Notes: generated by a model from the sequence alone, not told the origin. A stretch of 42,078 nt of DNA from Thermoplasmata archaeon (GCA_034667685.1 JAXDQU010000068.1:1-42078), one strand, 5' to 3'. Shown: positions 644-36,443, counted from the first letter of the stretch. Translations and numbers: made by a program.

Positions 644-2188
644 TCAGTGCCGGAAGCTCCTCTGGCCCGTGAACACCATGGCGATCCCATGCTCGTCGGC
701 GGCCTGGATGACCTCCGCGTCCCGGATGCTGCCGCCCGGGTGCACGATCGCGGCGACGCCGGCCTCGGCGGCCTCGTCCACGCCGTCGCGGAAGGGGAAG
801 AACGCCTCGCTCGCCATGACGGAGCCGCGCAGCTTCACGCCGCCCTTGAGGACGGCGATGCGCGCCGCGTCGACGCGCGCGGTCTGCCCGCCGCCGATGG
901 CGATGGTCTGCTCGTCCTTGGCGAAGAGCACGGCGTTGCTGCGCACGTGGCGCACCGCCTTGAACGCGAAGAGCATGTCGCGGAGCTGCGCCGGCGTGGG
1001 CTGCGCCTTGCTGACGACCTTCCACGTCGAGGTGTCGGGCTCCAGGATGTCGCGGTCCTGCACGACGAGGCCGCCCACGACGCTCTTGATCTGGAGGCCG
1101 CCGTAGTGGCCGTGCTCCGCGAGCCCGGGCACCTCCAGGAGGCGCAGGTTCTTCTTCGCGGTGAGGACGCGCAGCGCGGCCTGGCTGAACGAGGGCGCGA
1201 CGATGAGCTCCAGGAAGAGCTTGCCCATCTCGGTCGCCGTGGCCTCGTCCACCTCGCGGTTGAGCGCGATGACGCCGCCGAAGGGCGAGTAGGTGTCCGT
1301 GGCGTACGCGGCCTCGTACGCGGCGAGCGGCGTGTCGGCGCTGGCGATCCCGCAGGGCGTGGCGTGCTTGACGATGACGCAACTGGGGCGCGCGAACTCC
1401 TTCACGCACTCGATGACGCAGTCCGCGTCCACGATGTTGTTGAACGAGAGCTCCTTGCCGTGGATCTGCCTGGCGTTCACGACGCAGGGCTCGCTCGTGG
1501 GCTTGCCCTTGTAGAACGCGGCGCGCTGGTGCGCGTTCTCGCCGTAGCGGAGGTCTTGCAGCTTCTCGTACGAAAGCGAAAGATATCTCGGGAAGTCCTC
1601 GTCGAGGACCTTGCTGCGGAAGTACTGGTTGATGATCGCGTCGTAGCGCGCCGTGTGCGCGAACGCATCCGCCGCGAGCCGCTCGCGTGTCCCGAGGCTC
1701 GTGTGGCCGTGCTTCTCGAGCTCGGCGGCGACGGCCGCGTACTGCTGCGGGCTCGTGACGACGGCGACGTGGTGGTAGTTCTTGGCCGCGCTGCGGATCA
1801 GCGTGGGCCCGCCGATGTCGATGTTCTCCAGCACCTGCGCGAGCGGCGCGCCGGAGGCGACGGTCCACTCGAAGGGGTAGAGGTTGACGACCACGAGGTC
1901 GATGAGCGGGATCTGGTGCTTGGCCGCGGCATCCAGGTCGCGCGGGTCGTCGCGCCGCGCCAGCACGCCGCCCGTGATGCGCGGGTGCATGGTCTTGACG
2001 CGGCCGTCCATCATCTCGGGGAAGCCGGTGACGTCGCTGACGTCCCGGACGGCGAGGCCGCTCTCGCGCAGCAGCTTGGCGGTGCCGCCCGTGGAGAGGA
2101 TCTGCCCGCCGGACTGGACGACGCGGCGCGCGAAGTCCGGGAGCCCGGACTTGTCGGACACGGAGAAGAGCGCGTGGAAGGGCCGCAA
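644..2188 (-). CDS. purH: Bifunctional AICAR transformylase/IMP cyclohydrolase
   Basis: SVSDKSG, STGGTAK, GRVKTMHP, ENIDIGGPTLIRSAAKN, LRYGENAHQ, C-terminal FTGQRSFRH. Confidence 0.97.
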   Translation of the reverse strand: MRPFHALFSVSDKSGLPDFARRVVQSGGQILSTGGTAKLLRESGLAVRDVSDVTGFPEMMDGRVKTMHPRITGGVLARRDDPRDLDAAAKHQIPLIDLVVVNLYPFEWTVASGAPLAQVLENIDIGGPTLIRSAAKNYHHVAVVTSPQQYAAVAAELEKHGHTSLGTRERLAADAFAHTARYDAIINQYFRSKVLDEDFPRYLSLSYEKLQDLRYGENAHQRAAFYKGKPTSEPCVVNARQIHGKELSFNNIVDADCVIECVKEFARPSCVIVKHATPCGIASADTPLAAYEAAYATDTYSPFGGVIALNREVDEATATEMGKLFLELIVAPSFSQAALRVLTAKKNLRLLEVPGLAEHGHYGGLQIKSVVGGLVVQDRDILEPDTSTWKVVSKAQPTPAQLRDMLFAFKAVRHVRSNAVLFAKDEQTIAIGGGQTARVDAARIAVLKGGVKLRGSVMASEAFFPFRDGVDEAAEAGVAAIVHPGGSIRDAEVIQAADEHGIAMVFTGQRSFRH

Positions 2189-2234
2189 GTGCGCTTACCG
2201 CGCCGAGATTGCGGGCCCCTACAAAAGCCTGTGC

Positions 2235-3218
2235 TCAGAACCCGTATAGTTCGGGCCGCAGCCTTGGCAGGAACGCCATGAGCACGGCGGGCTCCGTCAG
2301 CGCGGTGCGCGTCACGTGGCCGCGCGAGAGCCAGCCGACCGCGCCCTCCTTGCGGCCGATGTCGGGCTCGCCGGAGAGCGCCCCGAGCGCGTCGCCCACG
2401 CTCCGCCCCGCGCGCACCTGCTCGTCCACGTGGGGCGGGTGCGCGAAGCCCGGGCCGTGGCCGTACGTGACGCGCCCCATGCGGTCCGCGACGGCGCACG
2501 CCTGCACGTCCATGAGCCCCTGCTCCAGCCTGAATAGCCCGGCTTCGATGCCCACGCCGAAGTCCGCCTCGGGCCAGAGGACGAGCGCCTCGCGGGCGCG
2601 GTGGAGCGCGCCCTTCCACGTGTCGTGCTCGAAGGGCTGCTCGGGGACGCCCGTCGCGACGGCGAAGCCGCGCACGTCCGCCTCGCCGAACAGGCGCGCG
2701 GCGGCCAGGCGCGTCGCCTCGACCTTCACGGGGTTCTCGCTGCCCACCGCGACCCGGACGGGGCGCGTGAGGTGCCCCTCGCGGTCGACCTCGCCGTTGC
2801 GGATGCGCGTGCTCTTGATGGGGCGCGCGTCGTCGGCCAGCACGTAGGGCGCCAGCACGATGCGAAGCTCCGAGAGGCCGCGGGCGCGCCGCTCCTGGTT
2901 GATCGCCTCGGCGGTGCCCACCGTCTCCTCGGTCGCGGCGATGGCGGAGAAGCGCGGCTCCAGCGCGAAGCCGACCGGCGTGCCGATGGGCAGGATCTCG
3001 GCGCGTGATAGCACCCCGCGCGCGGCGAGGAAGGCCTTCAGCGCCTCGACGCGCTGCGCGTACGGGTGGACCTTGCGGGCGCGGCGCTGGTTGGCGAACG
3101 CGTCGGTCGTGACGCCGATGCTGACGCCCTCGTCGCCCGCGGCGAACGCGGCGTCGAGGAGCGCCTGGTGCCCGCGATGCAGGACGTCGAACGTCCCGCC
3201 CATGCACACCCGGGTCAC
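2235..3218 (-). CDS. coaD: Phosphopantetheine adenylyltransferase (archaeal type) fused to YjjX-like inosine/xanthosine triphosphatase
   Basis: GGTFDVLHRGH (HxGH) and KSTRIRNGEVDREG, followed by VAVGSENPVK, VPEQP, VGIEAG, GAVGWLS. Confidence 0.88.
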   Translation of the reverse strand: MTRVCMGGTFDVLHRGHQALLDAAFAAGDEGVSIGVTTDAFANQRRARKVHPYAQRVEALKAFLAARGVLSRAEILPIGTPVGFALEPRFSAIAATEETVGTAEAINQERRARGLSELRIVLAPYVLADDARPIKSTRIRNGEVDREGHLTRPVRVAVGSENPVKVEATRLAAARLFGEADVRGFAVATGVPEQPFEHDTWKGALHRAREALVLWPEADFGVGIEAGLFRLEQGLMDVQACAVADRMGRVTYGHGPGFAHPPHVDEQVRAGRSVGDALGALSGEPDIGRKEGAVGWLSRGHVTRTALTEPAVLMAFLPRLRPELYGF

Positions 3219-3249
3219 GGACGGCAGAGCCTCGTCGGGGCGGATAAGG

Positions 3250-4200
3250 TTAGGCGGGCTGGACGTCGACGGCGCCGCTGCCGGTCGAGAGGCTCACGCC
3301 GGCGCGGATCGCGCGCGAGGCGTAGCCGCTCGTCTCGAACGTGCGGTGGTCGCACGGGCCGGAGGGCGGGCACGCGCTCGTCATGCCGTCCTTCAGGCCG
3401 ATGGTGATGCCGCCGCTGCCGGTGGACGCCGTGAGCGCATAGCCGTGCTGCGCGTCCTCGGGGAGCCGGAGCGAGACCTTGCCGCTGCCGGTGGAGACGC
3501 TGACGTCGCCGCTGGCCGTGGGCGTGAGCGTCGCGTCGACGCTGCCGCTCCCCGTGTGGAGGGTCGCGTCGACGATGCTCGTCTTCGCGCCGATGCTGCC
3601 CGAGCCGGTCGAGAGCGAGAGCGAGGTCGTCGCGCCGCCCGTCACCGTGATCGCGCCCGAGCCGTCGCTGGCGCTCAGCTCCATCGCGACGCTGCGCGGA
3701 ACCTTGAGGGCGAGCGCAGCGGCGTAGCCCGCGTCCTGGCTCTGGTTCATCTTCGCCCGGGCGCGGATCTCGTGCGCGCCGGCCGTCTCGTGCGACCAGC
3801 GGAAGTCGATGGCCGCGAGGTTCGCGTTCGCCTCGTCGGGCGTCGTGCCGCGCGCCTTGAGCACGGCGACGAGGCTCCACGATCCGTCGTTGGCCTCGTC
3901 GACCTGGATGGGGCCGGAGAAGGTCGAAAGGTCGACCGGCAGGCGCGCGATGCCCTGGATCGTGCCGGTCACGGTGATGGTGCGCACGGCGCAGAGCGCG
4001 CCGGGGATCATGGAGCCGCCGCCCACGTTGATTCCCTCGATGCAGGGGGCCAGCGTGTCGTTGCGCGACTCCTGCGCGCTCATGCTGGCGGCCGCCCCGG
4101 ACGGGGCTGCGTCCCGCGTGGGCTGCGTGGCGTTCGGGTCGGGCTGGATGCAGCCGGCGACGATGAGAAGGAAGAGGACGAGGGCAAGGGGTGCGCGCAT
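3250..4200 (-). CDS. DUF4097-like beta-repeat (adhesin-like) lipoprotein
   Basis: Signal ending VAGC; repeated STGSGSI/V units. Confidence 0.8.
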   Translation of the reverse strand: MRAPLALVLFLLIVAGCIQPDPNATQPTRDAAPSGAAASMSAQESRNDTLAPCIEGINVGGGSMIPGALCAVRTITVTGTIQGIARLPVDLSTFSGPIQVDEANDGSWSLVAVLKARGTTPDEANANLAAIDFRWSHETAGAHEIRARAKMNQSQDAGYAAALALKVPRSVAMELSASDGSGAITVTGGATTSLSLSTGSGSIGAKTSIVDATLHTGSGSVDATLTPTASGDVSVSTGSGKVSLRLPEDAQHGYALTASTGSGGITIGLKDGMTSACPPSGPCDHRTFETSGYASRAIRAGVSLSTGSGAVDVQPA

Positions 4201-4209
4201 GGGATCGCC

Positions 4210-5154
4210 TCACGCGGGGCCCACGGCGACCTGGCCGTTGGTGGCCTGGGCCGTGACCATCGTCTGGATGGCGCGCTGGTCGTAGCCGTGCGTCTTGAAC
4301 GAGCGCTCGTTGCAGGGCGGCGTGTAGTACTGCGAGCCCTGCGGGCAGGGGCCGAGGTCGCCGTCCCGGAGCGAGATGCTGACCTGGCCGTTTGTCGTCT
4401 TGCCCGTCACGTCGTAGCCGTGCTGCGCGTCCTCGGGCAGCGAGAGCGAGACCTGCCCGTTGACGGTCGTGGCGCTGATGCGGCCGCTGGCGGTGGGCCG
4501 GAGCGAGGCCTGGATCTGGCCGTTCACGGTCTGGAGGGAGACCTGCGTCACGTCGGCGTGCACGTTGAGCGGGCCGTTGACCGTCTCGACCGAGAGGCCG
4601 TCGGTCTTGCCATCGACGCTGACCTCGCCGTTGGTGGTGGCGAGCGTGACGACGAGCGTGATGCCGGGCGGGAGCGTGACGTCGAGGTCGGCCTGCGCGT
4701 CCTTGCAGCAGTCGTTGCCGTCCTTCTTGGCCTCGGCCTGCACGAAGTGGCTGGAGCCGTCCGTGTGGCGCCAGTCGTAGATCACGTGGTCGAGGTTCGC
4801 GTTCGCCTCGTCCTGCGACGCGCCGTAGGCCTTGATGTCGGCCACGAGGCTCCAGCTTCCGGCGGCGCCCTGGCGGACGTGGACGTGGCCGTTGAACGAC
4901 TTGAGGTCCACGTCCATCTTGTCGACCCCCGAGAGGTCGCCCGCGACGGAGACGCGCCGTCCCGCGCAGTACGCGCTGCCGCTGCCGCCGTTCCCGGTGC
5001 ACGACTGGTTCGCGGTCTGGGCGCTGGCGGTCATGTTGCCGCCGCTGTTGTGGGTGGCGGGCGGGGGCGAGCTGGGGTCCGCGGGGTTGGAGGGCTGGAT
5101 GCAGCCTGCCGCGAGGGCGAGGAGCACGAGCGCGACGGGCACGAGCCGGGTCAT
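4210..5154 (-). CDS. DUF4097-like beta-repeat lipoprotein, tandem paralogue of 3250..4200
   Basis: Signal ending AAGC; repeated TTNG/TVNG units; shares AGCIQP, SWSLVA, DEANANL and LPEDAQHGY with its neighbour. Confidence 0.8.
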   Translation of the reverse strand: MTRLVPVALVLLALAAGCIQPSNPADPSSPPPATHNSGGNMTASAQTANQSCTGNGGSGSAYCAGRRVSVAGDLSGVDKMDVDLKSFNGHVHVRQGAAGSWSLVADIKAYGASQDEANANLDHVIYDWRHTDGSSHFVQAEAKKDGNDCCKDAQADLDVTLPPGITLVVTLATTNGEVSVDGKTDGLSVETVNGPLNVHADVTQVSLQTVNGQIQASLRPTASGRISATTVNGQVSLSLPEDAQHGYDVTGKTTNGQVSISLRDGDLGPCPQGSQYYTPPCNERSFKTHGYDQRAIQTMVTAQATNGQVAVGPA

Positions 5155-20595: not shown

Positions 20596-21177
20596 ATGCG
20601 CGTCGCCCTCATGCTCCTGGTCGTCCTCGCGCTCATGGCGGGTTGCGCCAGCGCGCCCACGAGCACCGTGAAGCCCGCCGCCGTCACGCCGACCCTCGCG
20701 GCGGCGCCCAACGCGACGGAGAACGCGACCGCGGTCGTGGCGATGGCGCCGCCCGTGACGGTGCAGTACGATGGCGCCTCGCCCACGGGCGCCTGCGGCT
20801 ACGGCACCTCGACGCCGGCCGACACGTGCCAGTTCTCCGACGGCGGCAAGGAGGGCTTCCACGTCGTCGCCTACAAGGGGCAGGCCAGGAGCATCGAGCT
20901 GAGCATCGCCTACGGCGCCGTGCAGCCGGGCTCCACCTTCTACGCGAGCATCTGCACGAGCAAGGACGCGGACCCGAACCACGCGACGTGCAACGACTAC
21001 CAGACCGGCGCGTCGCCCTTCGTGCTGAAGAAGGACCTGAGCAGCCTGCCGCCGGGCGCCGCCGTCGCCATCAGCGCGGGAAGCGTCGCGATCCCGCCCA
21101 CGCCCGCCGGCGCGATGCTCTTCACGCCCGACGACTTCCACGTCAAGGGCGCGCTGACCCTCGTGCCCGCCGGCTGA
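20596..21177 (+). CDS. Hypothetical lipoprotein
   Basis: Signal ending LMAGC; two further Cys pairs. Confidence 0.75.
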   Translation: MRVALMLLVVLALMAGCASAPTSTVKPAAVTPTLAAAPNATENATAVVAMAPPVTVQYDGASPTGACGYGTSTPADTCQFSDGGKEGFHVVAYKGQARSIELSIAYGAVQPGSTFYASICTSKDADPNHATCNDYQTGASPFVLKKDLSSLPPGAAVAISAGSVAIPPTPAGAMLFTPDDFHVKGALTLVPAG

Positions 21178-21325
21178 AGCAGCGATCCGGCCACGGGAAA
21201 CGGGATGGGGATCGGGGGTGACCCCGCGGCCGTAGTGGGCGCCGTGCGCCTGGTAGTTGATATCAGTTTCGGGATTTGTCGGGACGGGCAGGCGACGGCC
21301 AGCGGCCAGACGTTCACCGGAACCT

Positions 21326-21877
21326 CTAGAGCATCACGGACGCGACGAGGTGCGCGACGCGAAGCGGCTCCGGCACGAGGCTCCCGGCCGTCGTGCGCGC
21401 GAGGATCTCGACCGCCTGCTGCGGGTCGACGTCGCCGGCCCACGAGATTGTGATGGGCGAGGTCGCCGTGGGCAGCGTCGCGGTGCGGCGCCGCTCGATG
21501 AGCCGCCACTTCGCCTCGGCGTCGGGCACGTGGCGCAGCGCCTTCTCGATCGACGCGTAGTCGGGCACGCCCTTGGTGAACGCGATGCACGGGATGCGCG
21601 TCTCGGCCGCGAGCCCTTCGAGGTCCACGACGTTGAAGCCGGCGAACGACGCGCCGTCCAGCAGCAGCGCCTTCGTGCCGCGCAAGCCCGAGGCGAGCAC
21701 GCATTGCGCCACGCGCGCGGTCGCGTCGCCCCCGTCGCGCATCACGTCCGTGGCGAGGATTCCTTCGACGCGCGTCGCGCCGCGCATGTGCACGCCCACG
21801 ACGGGCACGCGGCCGTCCGCGCGCGTGTGCGGGCTGTCGTCAAAGCCGATGGTCCTGATCTCAGACTTCATCGTCAT
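21326..21877 (-). CDS. DUF99 family (endonuclease dU-like) protein
   Basis: IGFDD, DGGDAT, LLDGASFAGFNVVD, VPEPLRVAHL. Confidence 0.92.
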   Translation of the reverse strand: MTMKSEIRTIGFDDSPHTRADGRVPVVGVHMRGATRVEGILATDVMRDGGDATARVAQCVLASGLRGTKALLLDGASFAGFNVVDLEGLAAETRIPCIAFTKGVPDYASIEKALRHVPDAEAKWRLIERRRTATLPTATSPITISWAGDVDPQQAVEILARTTAGSLVPEPLRVAHLVASVML

Positions 21878-22338: not shown

Positions 22339-22824
22339 GCGGCGATTCCTCGATCCGGATCGGCGCCTCGTAGCGCTGCGCCTCCAGGACGGGCGGAAGC
22401 CGGAGAAGCCGGTACGTGACGCACGTCGGCTCGTGCGCCTCCGCGCGGAACGAGTACGCGAGCGGGTCCGCGGGAAGCTCCCAGCGCAGCGGCAACGAGA
22501 GCGCGCACGAGGCCCCGCCGCGCGTCGTCGCGTACTCGACGTTCCCGGCGATGCTCACGTTCGCGCGCGGGTCGCTCGCGCCGCGGAATGCGCTGTCCTC
22601 GAAGCGGGCCGTGACCAGGCTCGCGGCCGCGGGCTCGATCAGGAGCCACGTGCGGCTTTCCACGAGCGCCGCGCCGGGATCCGCCTCCCACCCGCCCCAC
22701 GTCCCGGTGGTCGCGTTCGTGGGGATCCCCTGCACGCTCGCCGCGAGGAGAGCCCCGCCATCCCCTCGCGTCGGGCAGCCGGACAACGGCCAGCCAAGGC
22801 CAAAAGAAGGAGCGCGCGGAGCAC
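22331..22824 (-). pseudogene. Probable frameshifted lipoprotein gene
   Basis: Hydrophobic MLRALLLLALAG in one frame; lipobox LSGC and the mature region in the adjacent frame. Confidence 0.45.
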
Positions 22825-22904
22825 GGCTCGACGATGCGCCCCGGGACCTCATTCGTTTCGCTCGACATCCGTGGAGAGACGCGCGCATTCCAGTGATCGT
22901 TCGG

Positions 22905-24329
22905 TTACCGCGTGACCTTGAACGATTCGACCTCGGCCTTGAGCTTCCGCGCGTGCTCGTCCTTCTCGAAGTGGTCGCGCACGGGCTGCAAGATATCGTT
23001 CAAATATTTCGCCGCGGTCTTCTTGAGGTCGGCGGGATGGATCTTGCCTTCGGCGTAGTCGGCCGCGAGCGCATGATAGCTTTCGTACGTCGCGTTGCCG
23101 CCGAACTTCTCGGGGCGCTCGATCGTGACCGGGCTCTCGCCCGCGCGGCCCGTGCGGTGGTTCGCCCAGTGGCGCTGGAAGATCACGTAGCGGTAGTATT
23201 CGAGCACCGGATTCTCTTCGGTGATCTTCTCGGGGCAGTACGCCTTGTTGAGCTTCTTCGTGACCTGCTCCGCGGTGTCGGTCATGAAGATCGCGGAGTC
23301 GGGGTTCGACTTGCTCATCTTCATCGCGGTGGCTCGTAGTTGGGTCTCAAGTTCCGCTTGATCCTTGAGCCGCCGCACGACATCGTCAAGGGCCTGATGG
23401 AGTAGCGCATATTCAGGCAAGTTCGGTTGCTCACCAGACATTCCTGGCTGGGTACGCAATTCTCTTGTGATGCCTTCGATATCGGCCTTCGCCATTCTCG
23501 CTGCATCCAAGGCCAGCGCGAGCGATGGTTGAGCCGAGACATGATCATGGATTGCGCTCATCCGAGCACGGACTTCGGGCGTCAGCAACTGTGTTCCGGC
23601 AACGCTGCGCACAACACCTGGTCCGGCGATAGGAAGTAGGGAATCCAACATTGCCTGTCTGGAGTCTGAGAGCGGCGGCGGCTGCACAAGTCCCATCATC
23701 ATGTGATGCGACACCACGACCGGCTTCCAGAAGCCGAGCTTGGGGCCGACCTCGCGCGCGAGCATGTTGACCTTGCGCTGGTCCATGCCGAGCTGGGTGA
23801 TGTCAGCGCCCAGCTCGAAGATGTCGGCGCACTGCATGCACGGGTAGAGGATCTGCGCGGCGCTGAGCTTGTCCTTCTCGCTGCGGCCCATGATCTGCGT
23901 GGTGCGCAGGATGCGGTCGAGCGAGGAGTCGCGCGCGATGTTCATGACCTTCTTCCAGTAGGTCTCGCGCGGGATGAACTCGGAGGCCCAGACGAACTCG
24001 ACGTGGTCGAGGTCCATGCCGGTGGCCTTCCACGTCTCGACGATGGCCTTGCCCGTCGTCTGGATCTTGGCGAGGTCGCCGCCCATCTTGTTGTTGGCCC
24101 AGGCGTGCCAGTCCGCGACGAACATCTTGAACCGGACGCCGGCCTTCGTCATCTTGTTGACGTTGATCGCGCGGAGCACGCCCTGCGCGAGGTGGATGGA
24201 GCCGCTGGGCTCGAAGCCGTCGTAGGCGATGGGGTGCGCCTTCTCCGCGAGCAGCGCGCGCAGCTCCTCCTCGGTCACGATCTCCTCGCCGACCTCGCGG
24301 ACGAGCGCCAGGCGCTCCTCGACGTTCAT
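22905..24329 (-). CDS. tyrS: Tyrosine--tRNA ligase (archaeal/eukaryotic type) with in-frame insertion
   Basis: YDGFEPSGSIHLAQG, YPCMQCAD, GMDQRK, KMSKS, KAYCP, IHPADLK. Confidence 0.96.
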   Translation of the reverse strand: MNVEERLALVREVGEEIVTEEELRALLAEKAHPIAYDGFEPSGSIHLAQGVLRAINVNKMTKAGVRFKMFVADWHAWANNKMGGDLAKIQTTGKAIVETWKATGMDLDHVEFVWASEFIPRETYWKKVMNIARDSSLDRILRTTQIMGRSEKDKLSAAQILYPCMQCADIFELGADITQLGMDQRKVNMLAREVGPKLGFWKPVVVSHHMMMGLVQPPPLSDSRQAMLDSLLPIAGPGVVRSVAGTQLLTPEVRARMSAIHDHVSAQPSLALALDAARMAKADIEGITRELRTQPGMSGEQPNLPEYALLHQALDDVVRRLKDQAELETQLRATAMKMSKSNPDSAIFMTDTAEQVTKKLNKAYCPEKITEENPVLEYYRYVIFQRHWANHRTGRAGESPVTIERPEKFGGNATYESYHALAADYAEGKIHPADLKKTAAKYLNDILQPVRDHFEKDEHARKLKAEVESFKVTR

Positions 24330-24364
24330 CGGCGCGCAACGCGGGGCCGCGCTCAAAAGCGTAT

Positions 24365-24607
24365 CTACAGGGGGCCGGTCCTCTCGACGCCGAAGGCGAT
24401 CTTCAGGTCGACGCGCCACTCGGTGGGCTGGCCGTCCTCGCAGCGGACGCTGAAGTTGGAGACGTGCGCGCCGCTGATGCCGTGGATGCTCCCGCGGGCG
24501 TCCTCCAGCGCGTTGCGGACCGCGTCGTCGAAGCCGATGCGGCTGGAGCCGACGAGCTCGATGACCTTCGCGGTGCGGTGCTCGCCGTTCCCGAGCCCGA
24601 TTCCCAT
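24365..24607 (-). CDS. Dodecin family protein
   Basis: KVIELVGSS...FDDAVRNAL...WRVDLKIAF; start uncertain. Confidence 0.85.
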   Translation of the reverse strand: MGIGLGNGEHRTAKVIELVGSSRIGFDDAVRNALEDARGSIHGISGAHVSNFSVRCEDGQPTEWRVDLKIAFGVERTGPL

Positions 24608-34234: not shown

Positions 34235-35499
34235 GCGCGCTCCATCAGCCCGAGCACGTGCCCCACCAGGTAAAGGCTCCCCGTCACGAGCACGAGCCCG
34301 TCCGGGCCGGCGATGCCCTCCGCGGTGCGCAGCGCGTGCCCCGGCTCGTCCACCGCGAGGCCGAAGAGCCCGCTCATGCTGAAGGCGCGCGCGGCCTCCT
34401 GCGGCTCCAGGGCGCGCGGCGAGGGGACGCGCGTGACGACCGCGTCGCTCACGCACGGCGATAGCAATTCTACCATCTGCATCCAGTCCTTGTCGGCCAG
34501 CGCGCCGAAGACCGCGACGGGCCGGAGCCCCTCGGCCTGGAGATGCGCGACGAGCGCGCGCATGCCGGCGGGGTTGTGCGCGCCGTCGAGAAGGAGCGCG
34601 GGCTTGCCTGGCACCCGCTGCAGCCGCCCGGGCCAGCGCGCCTGGGGGAAGCCGCGCCGCACCGCGTCGACCGACACGGAGAGGCCGCGCGCGTCCACCG
34701 CGTCGAGCGTCGCCATCGCCAGCGCGGCGTTCTCCACCTGGTGCGCGCCCAGGAAGGGGATCTCGACGAGGCCGTGCTCGCGCAGGCCGTCGACCTCGAA
34801 CGTCTGGCCCCCCGGCGTGCGCTGCGCGGGGAGCGGGACGAAGTCGTCGCCCAGCACCGAGAGCGGCGCGCCCCGCTCGCCGGCCGCGAGCCGGATCGCC
34901 GCGAGCGCCTCGCCCGTGGCGCCCGTGACGAGCGGCACGCCCTGCTTCGCGATGCCCGCCTTCTCGCGCGCGATCGCGGCCTCGGTGTCGCCGAGCACCT
35001 CGGTGTGCTCCAGCGAGATGTTGGTGATGAGCGTGGCGAGCGGAGCGTCGAAGACGTTCGTCGCGTCGAGCCGGCCGCCCAGCCCCGTCTCCAGGACGAC
35101 GACGTCGACGCGCGCGTCGGCGAAGCGCTGGAGCGCGAGCGCGGTGGCGACCTCGAAGTACGTCGCCTCGGGGAAGGCGGCGAGCGCGGGCCGGATCCGC
35201 TCCATCGTCGCCGCAAGCTCCGCGCCCGTGATATCAACGCCGTCGATGCGGATGCGCTCGTGGAAGCGCACGAGGTGCGGGCTCGTGTAGAGGCCCGTCC
35301 GGTGCCCCGCGGCCTGGAGCGCGGCGGCCATCAGCGCGCACGCCGAGCCCTTGCCGTTGGAGCCCGCGACGTGGATCACGCGCAGCCCGCGCTCCGGGTT
35401 CCCCAGCGCGGCGAGCATCCCGCGGATCGTCTCGAGGCCGGGCTTCATGCCGAAGCGGGCGCGCGCGTCGAGGAGCGCCAACGCCTCCTGCTCGCTCAT
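34231..35499 (-). CDS. folC: Folylpolyglutamate/dihydrofolate synthase
   Basis: HVAGSNGKGS, YTSPHL, ETGLGGRLDATN, WPGR, LDGAHN, GSLYLVG. Confidence 0.96.
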   Translation of the reverse strand: MSEQEALALLDARARFGMKPGLETIRGMLAALGNPERGLRVIHVAGSNGKGSACALMAAALQAAGHRTGLYTSPHLVRFHERIRIDGVDITGAELAATMERIRPALAAFPEATYFEVATALALQRFADARVDVVVLETGLGGRLDATNVFDAPLATLITNISLEHTEVLGDTEAAIAREKAGIAKQGVPLVTGATGEALAAIRLAAGERGAPLSVLGDDFVPLPAQRTPGGQTFEVDGLREHGLVEIPFLGAHQVENAALAMATLDAVDARGLSVSVDAVRRGFPQARWPGRLQRVPGKPALLLDGAHNPAGMRALVAHLQAEGLRPVAVFGALADKDWMQMVELLSPCVSDAVVTRVPSPRALEPQEAARAFSMSGLFGLAVDEPGHALRTAEGIAGPDGLVLVTGSLYLVGHVLGLMERA

Positions 35500-36152
35500 G
35501 GCGATAGCAAGACCTCCCGGCTCGTGGAGGAGGCGCCGTCGAACACGACCTTGCCCTGCTCCCAGCGCGCGCGCCCGCTCGCGAGGAGCTGCACGCTGGC
35601 GGGGTAGATGGCGTGCTCGGCGTCGCGGATCCGCAGGCGCACGTCCTCCGCGCTGGCGCCGGGCGGGATCGCGACGGCCGCCTGCATGAGGATCGGCCCG
35701 CCATCCACGGTCTCGGTGACGAAGTGCGTCGTGCACCCCGCGATGCGGACGCCCGCCGCGTGCGCCTGCTGCTGCGCCTCCAGCCCGGGGAACACGGGCA
35801 GGAGGCTCGGGTGGATGTTCAGGAGGCGGCCCGGATGGCGCCGGATGAAGGCGGGCGTCAGGATGCGCATGTAGCCCGCGAGCAGCACGAGGTCGGGCGC
35901 CGCGCGCGAGAGGGCCTCGTCGAGCTGGCGCTCGTGCTCCTCGCGCGTCAGGCCCGCGCTGGGGAGCACGGCGACCGGCACGTCGGCGGCGCGGGCGATG
36001 GCGACGGCGGGCGCCTCGGCGCGGTTGCTCGCGACGAGGATGATATCAGCGTCCATCCTTCCCTCGCGCGAGGCGCGCAGGAGGTTCTCGAGGTTCGTGC
36101 CGCGTCCCGACACGAGCACCGCGAGGCGGAGGCGGGGCATCGCGCGCGCCAT
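35496..36152 (-). CDS. purN: Phosphoribosylglycinamide formyltransferase
   Basis: SGRGTNL, LAGYMRIL, NIHPSLLP, DGGPI; start may be 36140. Confidence 0.96.
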   Translation of the reverse strand: MARAMPRLRLAVLVSGRGTNLENLLRASREGRMDADIILVASNRAEAPAVAIARAADVPVAVLPSAGLTREEHERQLDEALSRAAPDLVLLAGYMRILTPAFIRRHPGRLLNIHPSLLPVFPGLEAQQQAHAAGVRIAGCTTHFVTETVDGGPILMQAAVAIPPGASAEDVRLRIRDAEHAIYPASVQLLASGRARWEQGKVVFDGASSTSREVLLSP

Positions 36153-36443
36153 TCATGCCACGCTGATTAGCGTTTTGGCCTCGACCGGCGCACTGCACAT
36201 CGGCCCGATCGTCTCGCGGAAGCGCTTGCGCCAGGCGGTGCCGTCGTGGTACTGCGCGGCGCTGGGGACGCGGAACGCCATCACGAGCGCGAAGCGCGTC
36301 GGGTGGTCGCTCTCCTGGAGCGCCTCGAAGCGCGCCGTGCCCCCCTCCTTGCGCCCGACCTCGTCGGCGAACGCGAGGACGGCCTTCTTCGCCGCGTCGA
36401 GCGACTCCTTGCGGACCTCGAACGTCTCGATCCTCGTCATCAT
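36153..36443 (-). CDS. Antibiotic biosynthesis monooxygenase-like (ABM) protein
   Basis: Size and the KEGGTARF...DHPTRF...H pattern. Confidence 0.7.
   Translation of the reverse strand: MMTRIETFEVRKESLDAAKKAVLAFADEVGRKEGGTARFEALQESDHPTRFALVMAFRVPSAAQYHDGTAWRKRFRETIGPMCSAPVEAKTLISVA

Follow-up and report, generated by a model that had tools for sequence, protein, structure and literature searches.

Few proteins are as conserved as the aminoacyl-tRNA synthetases, and insertions confined to single lineages of them are generally taken as old and fixed. In the tyrosyl-tRNA synthetase (TyrRS) described here, the loop beside the KMSKS motif of an essential, single-copy enzyme behaves like a cassette site. 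The gene lies on the minus strand of a 42,078-nt contig from a Thermoplasmata archaeon (GCA_034667685.1 JAXDQU010000068.1:1-42078; contig C68 of genome G000), which as a whole is called the window below, and it carries just before KMSKS an in-frame insert of foreign composition. A comparable module is the leucine-specific domain of bacterial leucyl-tRNA synthetase (LeuRS), which sits immediately before KMSKS in the sequence. This domain helps to position the KMSKS loop and is replaced by a tetrapeptide in one species (PMC3643597). Like the insert, it is a compact, optional and lineage-variable module near the KMSKS of a class I synthetase. However, it is old, present in most LeuRSs and native in composition, whereas the TyrRS inserts occur only at the tips of the tree, are unrelated to one another, have spread laterally and show a foreign codon usage. 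In the fungal mitochondrial TyrRS CYT-18, lineage-specific insertions in the catalytic domain add surface while aminoacylation is kept. That enzyme differs from the window's in being bacterial-type, in its other insertion sites, in the fixation of its insertions within a clade and in its known role in group I intron splicing.

Short mobile DNA may also be maintained inside essential genes, as with the Rickettsia palindromic elements, which stand in frame and are translated as surface segments. These elements are palindromic and occur many times per genome, whereas the window's insert is unique and has no terminal repeats. Mini-inteins share with it an in-frame position beside conserved catalytic motifs of essential genes and a lateral spread; unlike them, the insert has neither splicing residues nor a Hint fold, is predicted to be all-helical and would stay in the mature protein. 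The free-standing homing endonucleases of T4-like phages (Seg, Mob) promote a one-way gene conversion that carries the nuclease gene and its flanks into alleles without it (PMC2790892, PMC2988022, in excerpt), and excerpts on homing more broadly describe the mobilisation of the endonuclease gene together with flanking DNA (PMC2790892, PMC10055350). A similar arrangement is seen in the relative G009, which has a GIY-YIG-like open reading frame (ORF) beside its insert-bearing TyrRS gene; in contrast, the known cases lie between phage genes, and the window has no nuclease gene near TyrRS. Excerpts of the homing literature hold no description of an in-frame, translated insert acting as target-site disruptor in a cellular housekeeping gene, and titles and abstract openings hold none of this insertion or of swappable TyrRS inserts. 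The difference from these known cases lies in the behaviour of the inserts in the population: they are young, foreign and unrelated, they are swapped among near-identical alleles and they are common to non-sister lineages.

The window's gene encodes a TyrRS of the archaeal/eukaryote type. It scores 367.7 bits against NF006330 (NCBIfam cut-off 220), its PF00579 match (171.8, Pfam cut-off 21.1) falls in two stretches parted by the insert, and its best PDB homologues reach an E value of 3e-112. The TyrRS of the PDB cover residues 3-216 and 336-474, with 2 residues where the window's protein has ~119. A preliminary description of this DNA had placed an in-frame insertion just before KMSKS, and the comparison with relatives bears this out: 119 codons stand for 14, a net gain of 315 nt, i.e. 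105 codons. The span first proposed (23331-23672) was ~19 nt short at its high-coordinate edge, the stretch replaced with respect to the contigs of insert-less relatives being 23334-23691 (358 nt against 43 nt).

The insert is foreign in composition, and the AT-richer, atypical codons reported for it at the outset were recovered in our GC profiles. The GC contents at the first, second and third codon positions (GC1/GC2/GC3) are 0.61/0.37/0.98 for residues 1-216, 0.71/0.48/0.56 for residues 217-335 and 0.55/0.37/0.91 after residue 335. The genome is a 3.48-Mb archaeal assembly from a metagenome (99% complete, GC 0.711); the insert, with a GC of 0.585, belongs to the lowest 0.9% of its 68,808 windows of 357 bp. 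We also scanned the 1950 high-GC3 ORFs of this genome for internal low-GC3 segments with a flanking GC3 of at least 0.88. The TyrRS segment (23334-23708) ranks first of the 13 segments flagged, and the other 12 look like wrong-frame reads over intergenic DNA. The GC3 contrast is therefore real and peculiar to the TyrRS gene, and does not reflect a genome-wide process. By comparison, the extension of atypical codons into HHMMMGL, also put forward initially, is weak, as it concerns only three codons (cat, gga, ctt), which some congeners use too.

The acquisition is recent. We compared contigs of four public runs over 22800-24450. In the probable source run, contigs cover the whole interval with no difference. 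In a second sample, from another study, three contigs span the insert and both junctions with 0 differences; being independent, this sample indicates that the insert is not an assembly chimera. In two further studies, one contig each joins 23333 to 23692 (43 nt for 358), with flanks 91-97% identical. Among the differences listed between these insert-less contigs and the window, besides which there are 18 more, none falls in the 36-41 nt beside each junction. The insert is also absent in 4/4 congeners and in 2/2 further genera of the family having the same TyrRS type, the N- and C-terminal matches being adjacent in the DNA. Within the order, 3 of the 14 genomes with a TyrRS match possess an insert (G000, G009 and G013). 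The congener G003 is syntenic upstream and shows 84-88% nucleotide identity in both gene halves (87.7% for codons 1-213, 84.2% for codons 333-474). Thus, the foreign part is confined to the insert, and the flanks on either side are native. The preliminary description had named a chimeric assembly, or conservation throughout the clade with normal composition, as grounds for giving up its proposal of a recently acquired segment; neither is seen in these contigs and congeners.

The same site is occupied by other inserts in related enzymes. The relatives of the window's archaeon carry the label Thermoplasmatota in public records. In a clade of 65 TyrRS proteins, 49 have a linker of 16-17 residues (QAPPxGEMDPxERATA) and 16 have inserts of 45-175 residues at exactly the same site. 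Insert-less linkers of 15-17 residues were found in 53 of 64 and 61 of 74 parsed loci. As these linkers are so uniform, repeated precise loss is implausible, and gains combined with lateral movement are the better reading. On a core tree from which the insert columns were excluded, the 16 insert-bearers need 14 changes, about as many as with shuffled labels (mean of 14.4), and at least 8 are imposed by the starred branches. In this tree, the window's protein has an insert-less sister (Shimodaira-Hasegawa-like approximate likelihood-ratio support, SH-aLRT, 97). For all 13 insert-bearers examined, the nearest neighbour by N-terminal core (N-core) is insert-less or has a different insert. For example, the N-cores of P0094 and P0088 are 96.7% identical, with a helical insert in one and a beta-rich insert in the other; between P0048 and P0062 the N-core identity is 97.2% and the likeness of the inserts only 20%. 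These comparisons support a cassette-like behaviour of the site among relatives.

Some of these inserts form families that have spread laterally. Family H1 groups those of G013, P0094 and P0033 (E ~1e-19), with P0040 more distant; family H2 groups P0048/P0059 with P0105, the latter being identical to that of G009. Several inserts are orphans, that of the window among them. Grouping the cores of the four H1 carriers into a single clade is rejected (delta lnL 300, p = 1.9e-6 in the approximately unbiased test), in a test weakened by the fact that the group was named after the tree was seen. The insert shared by P0048 and P0059 is 80% identical, against 87% in the C-terminal domain, i.e. conserved about alike. 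At least these inserts common to two hosts are under constraint. In Pfam, ten other insert-bearing proteins match only tRNA-synt_1b.

The foreign composition is not limited to the window. The GC3 values upstream of, within and downstream of the insert are 0.85/0.60/0.82 in G009, 0.95/0.60/0.95 in G013, 0.81/0.22/0.70 in locus L121 and 0.94/0.50/0.87 in locus L122, locus L124 being an exception (0.67/0.62/0.52). Thus, 4 of the 6 other large inserts read as DNA have a GC3 far under that of the host. The neighbouring genes of L121 and L122 resemble the TyrRS flanks in composition. These two loci (L121 2501-3790 and L122 2465-3793) come from genomes labelled DPANN archaea, outside the phylum, which have the same TyrRS type (62-76% identity; 44-51% in three with large inserts). 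They have in common a beta-rich insert of 86 residues, with 49% identity between the two copies against 58-68% between the cores, and this insert is missing from their nearest cores (91% and 78%). In G013, atypical codons continue into KMSKSN, which suggests that what came in was part of another TyrRS allele rather than a free element. The pre-KMSKS site can also hold a long-fixed domain. In family f20, from another Thermoplasmatota TyrRS lineage (~36% identical), an insert of ~125 residues stands at the same site: in 15 of the 23 genomes with a match, the match is unbroken over nearly the whole 471-residue query (61-79% identity). The GC3 of this insert is native in the one genome examined (G037; L023/L216).

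The frame of the window's insert is compatible with translation. The coding frame is the only one open, the other five having 2-5 stops each, and 273 of 20,000 shuffles of the insert (1.4%) stay open. All other inserts read as DNA are also in frame and stop-free. The preliminary description had hesitated between a variable domain and an intron; the variable domain fits, and the intron does not. We used a simple, untrained scan of our own for bulge-helix-bulge pairing at the boundaries (two 3-nt bulges and a 4-bp helix, with the full central helix and no fewer than 3 of the 4 pairs formed in each flanking helix), which returned 0 candidates from 3969 position pairs; the best score (9/12) is below that of all 200 shuffles. 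As for group I/II introns, no Rfam family reaches its gathering score in 22800-24500, and the sole sub-threshold match there (E 0.26) is not an intron family. The insert shows no excess RNA structure relative to shuffles (minimum free energy z = +0.93). Intein ends are lacking, as had been remarked: the insert ends in TQLR, followed by ATA, without His-Asn, it has no Hint or intein match in Pfam, and AlphaFold2 (AF2) predicts helices only. The junctions have no terminal repeats and no target-site duplication of the kind left by miniature inverted-repeat transposable elements or other transposons. Because intein ends, bulge-helix-bulge pairing, Rfam introns and terminal repeats are all missing, the insert is presumably translated, and because the gene is essential and single-copy it would have to be carried in the active enzyme. 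We therefore infer that the insert is kept in the TyrRS.

As a protein, the insert is predicted to form a five-helix bundle. In the AF2 model of the full protein, helices extend over residues 223-235, 237-244, 251-265, 270-293 and 305-341, with a predicted local distance difference test score (pLDDT) of 58-83 over these helices and 87 overall. The insert modelled alone from its single sequence gives the same bundle (pLDDT 76.7), in line with the helical look first ascribed to it. A Foldseek search of the PDB, which had been proposed as a check, gave no relative (best E 0.48). No homologue was found in Pfam or elsewhere in the window's genome, either as DNA or as protein, and no score of 0.9 or more was obtained in the ESM Atlas.

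We consider lateral acquisition by recombination within conserved flanks, at a permissive and recombination-prone loop, to be the best explanation, with a probability of roughly 0.6. Foreign coding DNA would have replaced the 14-codon linker between the last Rossmann strand (SHHMMMGL) and the KMSKS loop, most likely entering through recombination in the almost invariant codons on either side. The flank peptides VVVSHHMxMGL and AMKMSKSNPDSAIFM vary little or not at all. As they are largely encoded by low-degeneracy codons (rich in Met, Lys and His), short stretches of DNA remain alike across hosts of different GC. The 36-41 nt at each junction, free of listed differences, fit crossovers there, although they are not proof of them. 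The pre-KMSKS loop would thus be a hot spot where unrelated or distant inserts of 45-175 residues come, go and replace one another, and the product would be an active TyrRS from which an added five-helix bundle projects next to the KMSKS loop. The enzyme would tolerate this bundle, which may adjust the movement of the loop or the contact with tRNA, like the leucine-specific domain in LeuRS. Tyrosylation by this insert-bearing enzyme would follow from its being the single copy in a 99%-complete genome. If this explanation is confirmed, the site would offer a natural library of tolerated insertions by a class I active site, useful for engineering archaeal TyrRS scaffolds in genetic-code expansion, and a tractable case of how essential genes gain new domains. 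A connection with selfish elements of the homing type that do without splicing is also possible.

Several observations weigh against lateral acquisition. No donor was found: the insert has no homologue among 5.8 billion proteins in a word-index search, the five HMMER matches with an E value of at most 0.001 among 1.84 billion representatives include no TyrRS, and no donor appeared in other sequencing runs. Two of these five matches (P0122 and P0123) are tandem-repeat proteins whose weak repeats add up, and were rejected as artefacts. No conversion tract is visible in the flanks of the window's gene among the differences listed. The GC1 (0.71) and GC2 (0.48) of the insert are typical of a protein from a GC-rich organism, so that a simple low-GC donor fits poorly. 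Moreover, of the 7 large inserts whose DNA was read, 5 have a low GC3, and large inserts seem concentrated in GC-rich hosts (2 of the 13 loci whose core GC3 is 0.75 or more, against 1 of the 125 with lower values, in a biased and phylogenetically dependent sample); a systematic cause other than recent transfer could produce both. Of the ideas in the preliminary description, that of a recent cassette was largely right, save for the intron option, and recombination through conserved flanks is a reasonable inference.

The other explanations differ widely in their merit. An assembly chimera might be suspected in a metagenome-assembled genome where composition changes abruptly, but we give it practically no credit, as the second sample crosses both junctions without a difference and the same phenomenon recurs in many independent assemblies. 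Removal of the element before the enzyme acts, as a bulge-helix-bulge intron, a group I/II intron, an intein or by translational bypass, would suit an insert adjoining a highly conserved motif, which is a typical place for inteins and introns; with the frame kept open, an all-helical fold, no terminal His-Asn, and none of the expected pairings, families or RNA structure, it is extremely improbable. An old lineage-specific domain, inherited vertically and lost many times, finds a precedent in family f20, with its same-site insert in 15 of 23 genomes and native codon usage in G037. Applied to the window, it is already contradicted and very improbable: all 4 congeners lack the insert, the conserved pattern of the mostly 15-17-residue linkers would not be restored by repeated precise deletion, and a GC3 of 0.56 has not ameliorated. 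More weight, although still rather little, goes to a de novo filler, i.e. a stretch of unrelated DNA, foreign or non-genic, that was trapped in the loop, for instance in the repair of a break, and that has no history as a TyrRS cassette or domain and persists only because it is by chance in frame and stop-free. The orphan status of the insert in sequence, family and fold, its lack of any match to the other same-site inserts and the fact that only open, in-frame insertions are visible in an essential gene all speak for such a filler. Nevertheless, only 1.4% of shuffles stay open and one-third of lengths keep the frame, a single sequence is enough for AF2 to predict a helical bundle with confidence (pLDDT 76.7), and the other insert families, conserved across hosts at 31-81% identity, are, those at least, real constrained domains.

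The inserts might also be carried along by a free-standing homing endonuclease, or be the scars it leaves, with insert-less TyrRS genes as its target, cut at or near the KMSKS-coding sequence. Repair would copy the nuclease gene with flanking DNA, and the in-frame insert would destroy the target and make its carrier uncuttable without any splicing, the nuclease of the window's lineage having since been lost. The loop would then be the landing site of mobile, translated, non-splicing cassettes spread by nuclease-triggered gene conversion, and these, kept in the protein, would be a functional substitute for inteins or introns. Only one locus provides evidence, that of G009 (L201, i.e. G009:C3:70000-78000, feature array 1921-5053; Table 1), where two nested partial copies of the TyrRS 3' end follow ORF147, one of them starting right after KMSKS. 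The nearest Atlas clusters of ORF147 score 0.95, with GIY-YIG in 20-40% of the members of two of them, and a cluster of the Eco29kI nuclease scores 0.93. No homologue of ORF147 turned up among the 400 other genomes of the phylum that were searched, which is what a mobile gene would show; however, ORF147 has no match in Pfam, NCBIfam or the PDB, and its GIY-YIG motif was read by eye. As far as the sequence goes, this array suggests what repeated homing-type invasion of the TyrRS 3' half would leave, and the in-frame insert could confer immunity to cleavage. Such a process would account for the fixed site, the tip-only distribution, the diversity of inserts and their lateral spread. In L121 and L122 there is no partial TyrRS copy, and no nuclease ORF was recognised by eye, family libraries not having been used on their ORFs. 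Because neither a nuclease gene nor a TyrRS fragment, i.e. nothing of the kind seen in G009, lies near the window's gene, we hold homing to be doubtful here, and lateral acquisition by recombination stays the preferred explanation.

Table 1. Features of the TyrRS gene in the window and of the insert-bearing TyrRS locus of G009 (L201)
Feature	Position	Strand	Remarks
Tyrosyl-tRNA synthetase gene, archaeal/eukaryote type	22905..24329	(-)	ATG start, MNVEER; 474 codons + stop
N-terminal Rossmann-fold catalytic part, codons 1-213	23691..24329	(-)	Ends ...VVVSHHMMMG; native codon usage, GC3 0.98
HLAQ, codons 46-49	24183..24194	(-)	Aligned with 'hiaqg' of PDB TyrRS 8zmi
Variable segment / insert, codons 214-332	23334..23690	(-)	119 codons vs 14 in insert-less relatives; GC3 0.56
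KMSKS loop + C-terminal anticodon-binding part, codons 333-474	22908..23333	(-)	Native codon usage, GC3 0.91
KMSKS catalytic loop motif, codons 337-341	23307..23321	(-)	Begins 4 codons past insert end
Insert-bearing TyrRS of G009	L201 1921-3309		
ORF147	L201 3306-3749		Overlaps TyrRS stop codon
Copy of last ~59 TyrRS residues	L201 3773-3949		
Two small ORFs	L201, after the 3773-3949 copy	(-)	One with DUF7557 + weak VapB-like match
Second, decaying TyrRS 3' copy	L201 4616-5050		DNA similarity starts right after KMSKS

Both catalytic motifs of the window's enzyme are conserved. In alignment A1 (55 sequences), H46, A48 and Q49 of HLAQ, which we take to be at the position of the class I HIGH signature, are invariant, as are K337, M338, S339, K340 and S341. 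The KMSKS motif is thus intact, and it aligns with that of solved TyrRS; the C-terminal part aligns to PDB TyrRS residues 252-379. A single TyrRS match was obtained in the 99%-complete genome, which makes this gene the only TyrRS there. The sole other PF00579 gene (contig C20, ~35045-36274) resembles the tryptophanyl-tRNA synthetase (TrpRS). In this TrpRS-like gene, ~125 residues without a counterpart in the profile separate positions 174 and 177, ahead of KMSSS; their codon usage is native (GC3 0.9-1.0).

A metagenome scan of 80 loci yielded one large insert only (L049, cut by the contig end), and hence hardly any further insert DNA. No viral reservoir of inserts was seen in 12 giant-virus TyrRS loci, the linker being short in the 10/10 that were parsed. 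The window's TyrRS is 43-57% identical to giant-virus TyrRS. In G013, whose insert is a 171-residue member of H1, the contig (L019, G013:C90) ends in the C-terminal part of TyrRS, 65 residues past KMSKS; this break could come from a repeat such as a duplicated TyrRS 3' end. A second C-terminal fragment in G067 was considered as a duplication and set aside: it lies at a contig end, like the main gene, and a break in the assembly probably accounts for it.

Downstream of the TyrRS stop, the window has no convincing high-GC3 ORF in 21175-21858 and 22339-22904 (~680 and ~570 bp). This region could not be aligned with the congener G003, and lost cargo is neither supported nor excluded thereby. ARAGORN in standard mode detected 48 tRNAs in the genome, none of them tRNA-Tyr or tRNA-Trp, and the candidates of its intron mode (introns of 453-1447 nt) are doubtful. 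Among these, a tRNA-Tyr with a 1447-nt intron was supported neither by a second ARAGORN run nor by Rfam, and the idea of a co-varying tRNA-Tyr was consequently dropped. Elsewhere in the genome, a long, near-perfect hairpin (L203 787-866; G000:C79, ~34386-34465) has many sub-threshold matches to microRNA precursors in Rfam. Finally, the N-terminal half of the window's TyrRS resembles both halves of the double-length 'TyrRS 2' found in plants and oomycetes, with 53-60% identity to either, and G006, from the same family as the window's genome, has a quite different TyrRS (46% identity).

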